Under the pieces are notes generated by a model, which did not search any database, had not been told where the DNA came from, and was given only the letters and a program-made list of their open reading frames with translations. This document shows, one piece after another, positions 23,646 to 23,954 of a DNA stretch of 40,694 nucleotides. Source of the DNA: a virus (Duplodnaviria; Heunggongvirae; Uroviricota; Caudoviricetes); IMG/VR virus record IMGVR_UViG_2874956758_000005. One strand, written 5' to 3'. A program made the position numbers and the translations under genes. Within the stretch, counting starts at the first letter, position 1. Every line of letters starts with the position of its first letter.

Positions 23646-23720
23646 GGAGCGGGCAGCGGGAATCGAACCCGCATCATCAGCTTGGAAGGCTGAGGTAATA
23701 GCCATTATACGATGCCCGCA
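23646..23720 (-). tRNA. tRNA-Gly (anticodon UCC)
   Basis: 75-nt cloverleaf: acceptor GCGGGCA/TGCCCGC, anticodon stem TCAGC/GCTGA, loop CTTCCAA, T-loop TTCGATT, U73, encoded CCA. Confidence 0.8.
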
Positions 23721-23723
23721 TAT

Positions 23724-23798
23724 GGTGCGACTACCGGAATCGAACTGGTGACCTACTGATTACAAGTCAGTTGCTCTACCTACTGAGCCAAGTCGGCA
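23724..23798 (-). tRNA. tRNA-Thr-like (anticodon UGU), irregular acceptor stem
   Basis: D arm GCTC-AGTAGGTA-GAGC, anticodon stem ACTGA/TCAGT loop CTTGTAA, T-loop TTCGATT; 3' acceptor strand AGTCG-C lacks one base and T-stem has an A-C mismatch. Confidence 0.5.
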
Positions 23799-23800
23799 CT

Positions 23801-23877
23801 GGACCGCCACCGGGGACTCGAACCTCGCACACTCAACTTAAAGGGTTGACGCTCTTTCCTGATGAGCTAGTGGCGGT
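23801..23877 (-). tRNA. tRNA-like gene, anticodon loop CCUUUAA (UUU, Lys-type?), atypical C33
   Basis: Perfect acceptor CCGCCAC/GTGGCGG, D arm GCTC...GAGC, anticodon stem TCAAC/GTTGA, T-loop TTCGAGT, CCA end; T-stem A-C mismatch. Confidence 0.5.
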
Positions 23878-23878
23878 T

Positions 23879-23954
23879 GGTGGCCCTTGCTGGATTTGAA
23901 CCAGCGACCTGGCGATTATGAGTCGCTCGCTCTCACCACTGAGCTAAAGGGCCG
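23879..23954 (-). tRNA. tRNA-Ile2/Met-type (anticodon CAU), ileZ-like
   Basis: 76-nt cloverleaf GGCCCTT...AAGGGCC acceptor, anticodon loop CTCATAA, T-loop TTCAAAT, CCA end. Confidence 0.7.

Follow-up and report, generated by a model that had tools for sequence, protein, structure and literature searches.

Why would a prophage carry four tRNA genes, packed almost end to end, between its late antiterminator gene and its lysis genes, and where did these genes come from? We asked this for the 40,694-nt stretch of DNA recorded in IMG/VR as virus IMGVR_UViG_2874956758_000005 (Duplodnaviria; Heunggongvirae; Uroviricota; Caudoviricetes), the whole of which is called the window below. A reading of the letters alone (the sequence-only reading) had proposed four minus-strand tRNA genes with the anticodons CAU, UUU (marked as doubtful), UGU, and UCC, spaced 1 to 3 nt apart between the antiterminator gene Q and the lysis cassette, and had suggested that they might be a distinct acquisition. 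On balance we consider it probable that the four genes form a composite, moron-type tRNA cassette in the late region of a phage-21-like (HK97-type head) lambdoid E. coli prophage, predicted to be co-transcribed and supplying minor tRNAs for AUA, ACR, and GGR codons. The second gene, annotated as tRNA-Lys, is the member for which this explanation works least well.

Identities of the four tRNA genes

The ARAGORN scan of the window gave four tRNA genes and no more, each on the minus strand, and the Rfam family RF00005 (gathering score, 29) called the same four independently, with E-values of 4e-14 to 2e-6. The array spans positions 23645-23953 and reads as follows in the order of transcription, the second position being referred to below as slot 2:

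23878..23953, minus strand: tRNA-Ile2 (CAU), matching ileZ; ARAGORN and Rfam (72.5 bits)
23800..23876, minus strand: argN-family tRNA with the anticodon UUU ("Lys"); ARAGORN and Rfam (44.4 bits)
23723..23797, minus strand: tRNA-Thr (UGU), thrU copy; Rfam (58.6 bits), and ARAGORN at 23724-23797, the extra base being counted with the CCA, as by the Prokaryotic Genome Annotation Pipeline (PGAP)
23645..23719, minus strand: tRNA-Gly (UCC), glyT copy; ARAGORN and Rfam (64.9 bits)

The ARAGORN scan, which the sequence-only reading had named among its checks, recovered every gene, as did Rfam above its threshold, and the anticodons read by ARAGORN are those first proposed, the queried UUU included. 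The spacers measure 1 nt (23877), 2 nt (23798-23799), and 3 nt (23720-23722), in agreement with the proposed packing, and all four genes encode CCA. The near-identical chromosome NZ_CP065615 (FDAARGOS_943) bears these four tRNAs in its PGAP annotation as well. When compared with the canonical core (7-bp acceptor stem, U8, U33, and 7-nt anticodon loop), the Ile2 and Gly genes conform, whereas the UUU tRNA departs by C33 and an A51.C63 mismatch and the Thr gene by a short 3' acceptor strand and A9G.

The CAU tRNA is 100% identical to ileZ of the Shiga toxin (Stx) 2-converting phage Stx2a_F349 and of the PPompW prophages, and PGAP labels it tRNA-Ile. Its identity to K-12 ileX is 89%, compared with 70% to the elongator gene metU, and these values rule out a Met identity. 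It also has C4-G69 and C5-G68, which in tRNA-Ile2 we take to be determinants for TilS. Judged by these features, the tRNA would be of the AUA-reading Ile2 type. The UCC tRNA at the other end of the array is 100% identical to K-12 glyT; among 61 Gly copies this exact host sequence is the major allele (37 copies), and eight copies have a compensatory change of pair 6:67 from C-G to U-A.

The UUU tRNA of slot 2 is 84% identical to argN and 61% identical to host lysT, which rules out an origin from lysT. It has kept the traits of the argN family, namely C1-G72, U73, the encoded CCA, and the A51.C63 mismatch in the T stem, and in its anticodon loop, CCUUUAA, the nearly universal U33 is replaced by C33. 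The annotated "tRNA-Lys" is thus a member of the Arg family whose anticodon has been switched. The low score that it receives from the covariance model is typical of the family and no sign of decay, since the genuine argN scores 43.0 bits with the same Rfam model. The UUU allele of the window is the major one (40 of 69 copies). Damaged Lys alleles exist in sizeable classes, one with U8C and one with a D-stem deletion in PPompW, and these are below the Rfam threshold or not called by PGAP.

A variety of anticodon arms was seen on the slot-2 body: UCG, UCU, UUU with C33, UUU with U33, GCG, an 8-nt loop, and an 11-nt loop. In the 8-nt loop, CUUUUUAU, ARAGORN reads the four-base anticodon "tttt" and PGAP a Lys tRNA; the gene scores 47.3 bits with Rfam, and its body is intact. 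The variant with a 6-bp stem and an 11-nt loop, ACGAUAACAGG, also has an intact body and is called tRNA-OTHER by PGAP. Such aberrant arms occur at the loci L009 (702-779, E. coli M3), L010 (701-782, strain 2015C-3163), and L058. Other bodies have exchanged anticodons as well. The thrU body carries UUU in the IMG/VR contigs L078 and L110, whose arrays read Ile-Lys-Lys-Gly, and UCU in phage SerU-LTIIb (L139, 979-1054), where the gene is annotated as tRNA-Arg and adjoins the holin gene of this LT-IIb toxin phage; the ileZ body carries CGU in one case (L047). This lability of anticodons could reflect drift in prophages or repeated recruitment.

The UGU tRNA corresponds to K-12 thrU with two changes, A9G and a one-base deletion in the 3' acceptor strand, where GTCGGC has lost a G to become GTCGC, which leaves six bases to pair with seven. 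The intact allele of strain 165 reaches 73.8 bits with Rfam, so that the two lesions cost 15 bits. Of 60 Thr copies, 42 are identical to host thrU, six have A9G alone, and two have both lesions, the latter being those of the window and of its near-twin FDAARGOS_943. The Thr lesion of the window is recent. As the first two acceptor pairs serve as identity elements for threonyl-tRNA synthetase, the Thr copy of the window is probably impaired.

Mosaic origin, spread, and constraint

The window was aligned with three reference loci, those of Stx2a_F349, a PPompW prophage, and phage phi467. It tracks the PPompW prophages of E. coli O157 (Q-Ile-Lys-Arg(UCU)) over the stretch that starts with Q and ends with the slot-2 CCA. 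Beginning with the first Thr base and as far as the holin gene, it tracks phi467 (stxAB-Thr-Gly-S), including a 292-nt spacer; the switch point between the two modules lies exactly at the CCA of slot 2. Homology of Stx2a_F349 to the window starts about 40 nt 5' of ileZ, at the predicted cassette promoter described below. The array is therefore a mosaic, in which a classic ileZ/argN module has been joined to a thrU/glyT module of host-derived sequences. Slots 1 and 2 are inherited from the classic array, and Thr-Gly alone is a different module. The Thr-Gly pair was also considered as a chunk of the host thrU-tyrU-glyT-thrT operon, an origin rejected on the grounds that the mature tRNAs alone match, with no similarity in the flanks and no tyrU.

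The sequence-only reading had noted that the anticodon set differs from the classic ileZ-argN-argO trio, and it does: slot 2 has UUU and not UCG, and Thr(UGU) and Gly(UCC) stand where the trio has argO (UCU). A distinct acquisition follows from this for the Thr-Gly module only, as ileZ (100%) and the argN-family gene of slot 2 (84%) belong to the classic array. That the array occupies the slot where Stx phages carry tRNA and toxin genes was likewise confirmed, by the order Q-ileZ-argN-argO-stx2AB in Stx2a_F349 and by the toxin genes of phi467. The contents at this site vary among related late regions and include Ile-Arg-Arg, Ile-Lys-Arg, Ile-Lys-Thr-Gly, stx with Thr-Gly, and Asn-Thr. In Stx2a_F349, a match to the small RNA (sRNA) STnc100 (158.5 bits) lies directly downstream of stx2B (L002, 792-1003, minus strand).

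A decayed array was found in a prophage remnant of strain UTI89 (L008, 600-900), where it adjoins an IS4 pseudogene and the Ile and Thr neighbors are heavily mutated. The slot-2 tRNA of this remnant is Arg(UCU), is still callable at 52.1 bits, and has the same GT-Thr junction as the window, which suggests that the junction between slot 2 and Thr is older than the switch to UUU.

The 309-bp array was present, at a coverage of at least 80%, in 603 of 5,426 complete E. coli genomes (~11%); together with the flanks of the window itself it was found in 282 genomes. The full array also occurs in three phage records (vB_EcoM-606R7, vB_EcoS-689R5, and PhiR47_1), and the argN/Lys family as a whole was found in 2,145 genomes. 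A gapped pattern for slot 2 matched at least 120 IMG/VR contigs; among GTDB species representatives it matched E. coli, Shigella flexneri, and one metagenome-assembled genome, with no distant relatives. The IMG/VR sample was selected on an intact pattern of D arm and T arm, so that decayed copies are under-sampled in it. The 133 sampled arrays, as read by ARAGORN, comprised the following types, the rest being oddities:

Ile-Lys-Thr-Gly: 55 arrays, plus 5 truncated
Ile-Arg(UCG)-Arg(UCU): 47 arrays, plus 8 without argO
Ile-Lys-Arg: 4 arrays

The Ile-Lys-Thr-Gly block sits in several different flanks. The array type is common, already machine-annotated in hundreds of genomes, and a feature of an ordinary kind. 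The closest genome is NZ_CP065615, which is 99.9% identical to the window over 801 bp and shares its Thr lesion.

Sequence diversity was compared in 16 haplotypes from 22 arrays whose flanks are homologous; the 48 full arrays were uninformative, their flanks often being non-homologous mosaics. Segregating sites were distributed as follows:

ileZ: 0 of 76 sites (P = 0.015 versus flanks)
Lys type: 5 of 77 sites (odds ratio, 1.04)
Thr: 2 of 76 sites
Gly: 3 of 75 sites
flanks: 34 of 545 sites

Clear recent purifying selection was thus seen in ileZ only. On a longer time scale, the alignment of the slot-2 family had 97.3% of its stem cells paired and four pairs changed on both sides (4:70, 7:67, 28:44, and 31:41, as alignment columns), a covariation score that was reached by none of 500 shuffles, slid controls giving 0 to 1 such pairs. 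Because UCU-type copies already have the UCAAC/GUUGA anticodon stem of the Lys type, these compensations predate the switch to UUU, and the covariation says nothing direct about the UUU form.

Layout and predicted expression of the late region

The array is followed on one side by the lysis genes and preceded on the other by Q, as the sequence-only reading had placed it. The features around it, all on the minus strand and given in the order of transcription, are the following:

24153..24842, minus strand: late antiterminator Q, 229 aa, intact (PF06323, Phage_antiter_Q, 302 bits; the same name is given by PGAP in homologous loci)
24136..24164, minus strand: predicted promoter pR', TTGCAA-17-TATATT, which overlaps Q at its 3' end (consensus scan; the segment is identical in PPompW phages)
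24056..24084, minus strand: predicted terminator tR', a CCCGC/GCGGG stem closing a loop of 6 nt and followed by TTTTTTGTG (hairpin scanned on the plus strand, T-run read on the minus strand)
23963..23991, minus strand: putative sigma-70-type cassette promoter, TTGCAA-17-TATTAT (consensus scan and conservation)
23353..23644, minus strand: structured non-coding spacer from tRNA-Gly to the holin gene, with three long hairpins and then a weak CCGC-UUUU-GCGG-U6 element at 23419-23438
23137-23352, minus strand: P21-type holin (PF04971)
22640-23137, minus strand: lysozyme (PF00959)
22179-22655, minus strand: Rz (PF03245), with an embedded Rz1 open reading frame (ORF) at 22241-22423 (ORF list)

Beyond the lysis cassette follow ORFs for an HNH endonuclease, a terminase, and a portal protein, as named by PGAP in the near-identical genome. 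In NZ_CP065615 itself Q is annotated as frameshifted (L001, 3749-4437), whereas the Q ORF of the window is intact.

The predicted tR' would end a transcript from the predicted pR' after about 70 nt. As the tRNA genes lie beyond both elements, as they do in Stx phages, a Q-dependent read-through to the tRNAs is plausible. The cassette might in addition have a promoter of its own. By itself the promoter scan was not significant (3 sites versus 1.6 expected), but in 53 distinct upstream sequences, representing 122 arrays, the -35 sequence TTGCA and the -10 sequence TATTAT are kept at 90% or more while the spacer and the upstream DNA diverge, and this conservation of the hexamers amid diverging surroundings argues for a real promoter. 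Between the putative promoter and the first base of ileZ lies a GC-rich stretch of 9 nt, CCTGCGCCC. The late, Q-dependent transcription first proposed for the array hence agrees with the predicted pR' and tR' preceding it, but is probably only part of its expression. With its predicted promoter the unit resembles a moron and could be expressed in lysogens too.

The spacer downstream of the tRNAs, which is common to the window and phi467, has a minimum free energy of -92.5 kcal/mol, compared with -70.0 +/- 4.7 kcal/mol for shuffled sequences (z = -4.78). A permissive Rfam search of 23300-24200 assigned no family to it and returned reverse-strand tRNA artefacts and sub-threshold matches resembling isrK and isrJ. 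The terminator scan found no minus-strand terminator downstream of the tRNAs, and the weak 4-bp stem with U6 in the spacer is terminator-like. The sub-threshold matches lie in the pR'-tR' leader (24059-24132, minus strand), which resembles two sRNAs of Salmonella prophages, isrK (22.7 bits against a gathering score of 50) and isrJ (24.5 bits against one of 37); this likeness may reflect a shared architecture of late-leader RNAs or chance.

Several other features were recorded elsewhere in the window. The nin region upstream of Q holds a ParD/ParE toxin-antitoxin pair (26610-27247, plus strand) as well as a restriction endonuclease of the PstI/BsuBI type (27288-28370), accompanied by an Eco57I/N6-adenine methylase (28367-30199), and these accessory genes (26610-30199) are very rich in AUA, ACA, GGA, AGA, and AGG codons. 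A full-length DicF antisense sRNA (36142-36193, plus strand, 76.7 bits with Rfam) lies in the early region, and a match to the sRNA IS009 (41-239, minus strand, 222 bits with Rfam) at the far end of the late operon.

Explanations weighed and known systems compared

Codon use was compared between the late genes (7,043 codons) and the annotated K-12 genes of one 50-kb stretch (14,748 codons), with the following frequencies per 1000 codons:

AUA: late 5.0, K-12 2.4
ACA: late 13.2, K-12 5.4
ACG: late 28.3, K-12 12.1
GGA: late 13.3, K-12 6.0
GGG: late 19.7, K-12 9.2
AAA: late 31.5, K-12 34.0
AGA: late 4.8, K-12 1.2
AGG: late 4.0, K-12 0.7

For AUA, ACA, ACG, GGA, and GGG the within-family odds ratios were 2.0 to 2.7 (P <= 1e-4), and the early genes and the restriction-modification and toxin-antitoxin accessory genes were more extreme, with 9.7 and 17.9 AUA codons per 1000, respectively. 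This comparison, which had been named beforehand as a check, fits a supply of Ile2, Thr(UGU), and Gly(UCC), the readers of A/G-ending minor codons, and does not fit one of an AAA reader. Under the explanation that we favor, the four genes would be transcribed as one precursor, in the order Q, pR', tR', cassette promoter, ileZ, UUU tRNA, thrU copy, glyT copy, spacer with the weak terminator, holin, endolysin, and Rz. The promoter 5' of ileZ would drive this transcription, also in lysogens, and after induction Q-modified RNA polymerase would add read-through past tR'. Because the genes are only 1 to 3 nt apart and encode CCA, we propose that RNase P would cut each 5' end and exonucleases would trim the 1 to 3 leftover bases. 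The products would raise the minor isoacceptors for AUA, ACA/ACG, and GGA/GGG, codons that are enriched about 2-fold or more in the phage genes and more strongly in the AT-rich accessory genes. Lysogens may then express second copies of thrU and glyT and a further AUA-reading Ile2 gene; to our knowledge, the host has no genes other than thrU and glyT for these minor isoacceptors.

Several points weigh against this explanation. AAA is not enriched, so that the UUU tRNA is not explained by codon supply, and AGA and AGG are enriched 4- to 5-fold, although the array has lost argO (UCU). The K-12 baseline is rich in well-expressed genes, which makes all of these enrichments upper estimates, and compared with genome-wide values AUA is only marginally raised in the late genes. 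With its Thr copy damaged, the array of the window has at most three members that can work normally, and the Lys, Thr, and Gly genes are not significantly less polymorphic than the flanks. Promoter, terminators, co-transcription, and processing, finally, are all predictions.

A function outside translation of the phage's own codons would be counter-defense, with the cassette replacing host tRNAs that are cut by PARIS AriB, P2 Old, and PrrC, the argN-bodied UUU tRNA being a putative unrecognized substitute for tRNA-Lys and Thr(UGU) adding dosage. We regard this as unlikely for the cassette, but it draws on the one tRNA for which codon bias does not account. Cleavage by AriB is abolished by a change of U39 and inhibited by A41C (PMC12409363), and the target of P2 Old, known from the classic exclusion of lambda, is tRNA-ThrU, which the enzyme cuts at the paired CNG motifs of the anticodon stem (PMC12445682). 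Positions 36-41 of the UUU tRNA read UAAGUU, with GUU at 39-41 in place of the UCA of host lysT, to which it has little overall similarity (61%), and its UCAAC/GUUGA stem lacks CNG where argN has CAG/CUG; by the published rules it would escape both enzymes. The choice of anticodons fits as well. UUU and UGU are prime targets of AriB and UGU is the target of P2 Old, and UUU arose at least twice, on the argN body and on the thrU body of L078 and L110. Lys-UUU, Thr-UGU, and Asn-GUU, as found at the Q-to-lysis site, are exactly the AriB target set, and other lambdoid phages carry Asn(GUU) and Thr(UGU) here without a bias for Asn codons, the Thr(UGU) of SfI and phage 21 being strongly diverged, with a shortened stem, and of a kind reported to be resistant to Old. 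Against this, the Thr and Gly copies of the window have host-identical anticodon arms and are expected to be as cleavable as the host tRNAs, little if any protection against P2 Old was obtained by over-expressing host thrU (PMC12445682), and the phage has no known PARIS trigger. The UUU gene itself is as polymorphic as the non-coding flanks and has sizeable damaged allele classes (U8C and the PPompW D-stem deletion), its CNG-free stem is older than the change from UCU to UUU and common to UCU-type copies, and C33 and U73 may block normal decoding or charging by lysyl-tRNA synthetase. The lead would consequently apply to the UUU tRNA only, and there it is weakened by the lack of recent constraint on the gene, by C33, and by U73. 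Its sharper form, a tRNA-Lys(UUU) substitute on an Arg scaffold that the foreign body, the altered positions 39-41, the CNG-free stem, and C33 would make invisible to AriB, PrrC, and P2 Old, with the arm diversity of slot 2 recording an arms race among temperate lambdoid phages, seems to us quite unlikely. If true, it would mean that tRNA counter-defense, so far a matter of large virulent phages, reaches small prophage cassettes present in about 11% of E. coli genomes, and a nuclease-proof lysine tRNA would tie common E. coli prophages to the newly recognized conflict of mobile elements over tRNAs and account for a tRNA that codon usage leaves unexplained.

Decay would be another explanation, with all genes but ileZ being neutral hitch-hikers and the UUU anticodon, C33, and the Thr deletion products of drift. 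The Thr lesion of the window, the decayed Ile and Thr neighbors in UTI89, the D-arm deletion of the PPompW Lys gene, the aberrant 8-nt and 11-nt loops, the flank-level polymorphism of Lys, and the spread of anticodon changes over several bodies all agree with this. We nevertheless judge it improbable, because the major Thr (42 of 60) and Gly (37 of 61) alleles are still exact host sequences and the intact Lys allele makes up 40 of 69 copies, and because the slot-2 lineages have kept their pairing (97.3% of stem cells, four double-sided pairs, a score unmatched in 500 shuffles). The compensatory Gly 6:67 allele, the conserved promoter hexamers, and the persistence of the four-gene block across flanks, phage records, and 11% of genomes also speak against mere passengers. 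The tight packing of the genes directly 5' of the lysis genes and the unusual structure of the 292-nt spacer (z = -4.78) would suit yet another role, in which tRNAs and spacer act mainly as entry sites for RNase P or RNase III/E that detach the pR' leader and set the stability and timing of the lysis mRNA, decoding being secondary. Such a role would leave the mature identity to ileZ, thrU, and glyT and the dedicated conserved promoter unexplained, and the same type of lysis cassette follows other tRNA or toxin genes in related phages; we consider it very improbable. What the analysis adds is the precise mosaic, the conserved promoter predicted for the cassette itself, the Arg-family identity of the "tRNA-Lys" with its C33, and the damaged Thr gene of the window, the UUU member being the sole part with some, modest novelty.

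The recruitment of tRNA genes by anticodon mutation (isoacceptor switching) is a known phenomenon, and the Arg (UCG/UCU) body that carries UUU here resembles it, as do the parallel switches on the thrU (UUU and UCU) and ileZ (CGU) bodies. The likeness rests on the anticodon sequence, and charging of the switched UUU tRNA with lysine is only putative. A second comparison is with the nuclease-resistant phage tRNAs, such as Lys(UUU), Thr, and Asn of T5 against PARIS and coliphage Thr(UGU) against P2 Old. The UUU tRNA resembles these in differing from the host AriB site at positions 39-41 and in adjoining a Thr(UGU) gene. Unlike it, they come from large virulent phages with at least 20 tRNAs and their resistance was shown experimentally, whereas here it is read from sequence; the body in the window derives from an Arg tRNA and has C33 and U73, and the Thr gene is host-like and thus predicted to be sensitive.

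That lambdoid phages can carry tRNA genes downstream of Q has been known since the work on phage 21 and the Stx phages. The Asn(GUU)/Thr(UGU) pair of phage 21, SfI, Sf6, ST64T, and PS3 shares with the window the site, the layout of the late region, and Thr(UGU). Its tRNAs are far diverged from the host genes, in contrast to the host sequences of the window Thr and Gly. In SfI (L140, 439-594) both Asn and Thr are strongly diverged from host tRNAs at cleavage-site positions, and the anticodon stem of Thr is shortened and altered, unlike that of the window Thr. For SfI, Sf6, ST64T, PS3, and P21, tRNAs downstream of Q have been reported together with a bias for ACA codons, which was put forward to explain them (PMC3636060).

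Of the two loci that the window tracks, PPompW differs from it in having kept argO and in the D-stem deletion of its Lys gene, and phi467 in having stx genes in place of Ile-Lys and an intact Thr copy. A literature search on ileZ/argN/argO found nothing relevant. With the ileZ-argN-argO array of Stx2a_F349 and the 933W type, the array shares the site, downstream of Q, pR', and tR' and upstream of toxin or lysis genes, as well as an identical ileZ in first position, the same -35 and -10 hexamers upstream, and a slot 2 of the same family, with C1-G72, U73, and common D and T arms. It differs from that array in having UUU with C33 in place of UCG in slot 2 and in carrying copies of thrU and glyT in place of argO, with no toxin genes after them.

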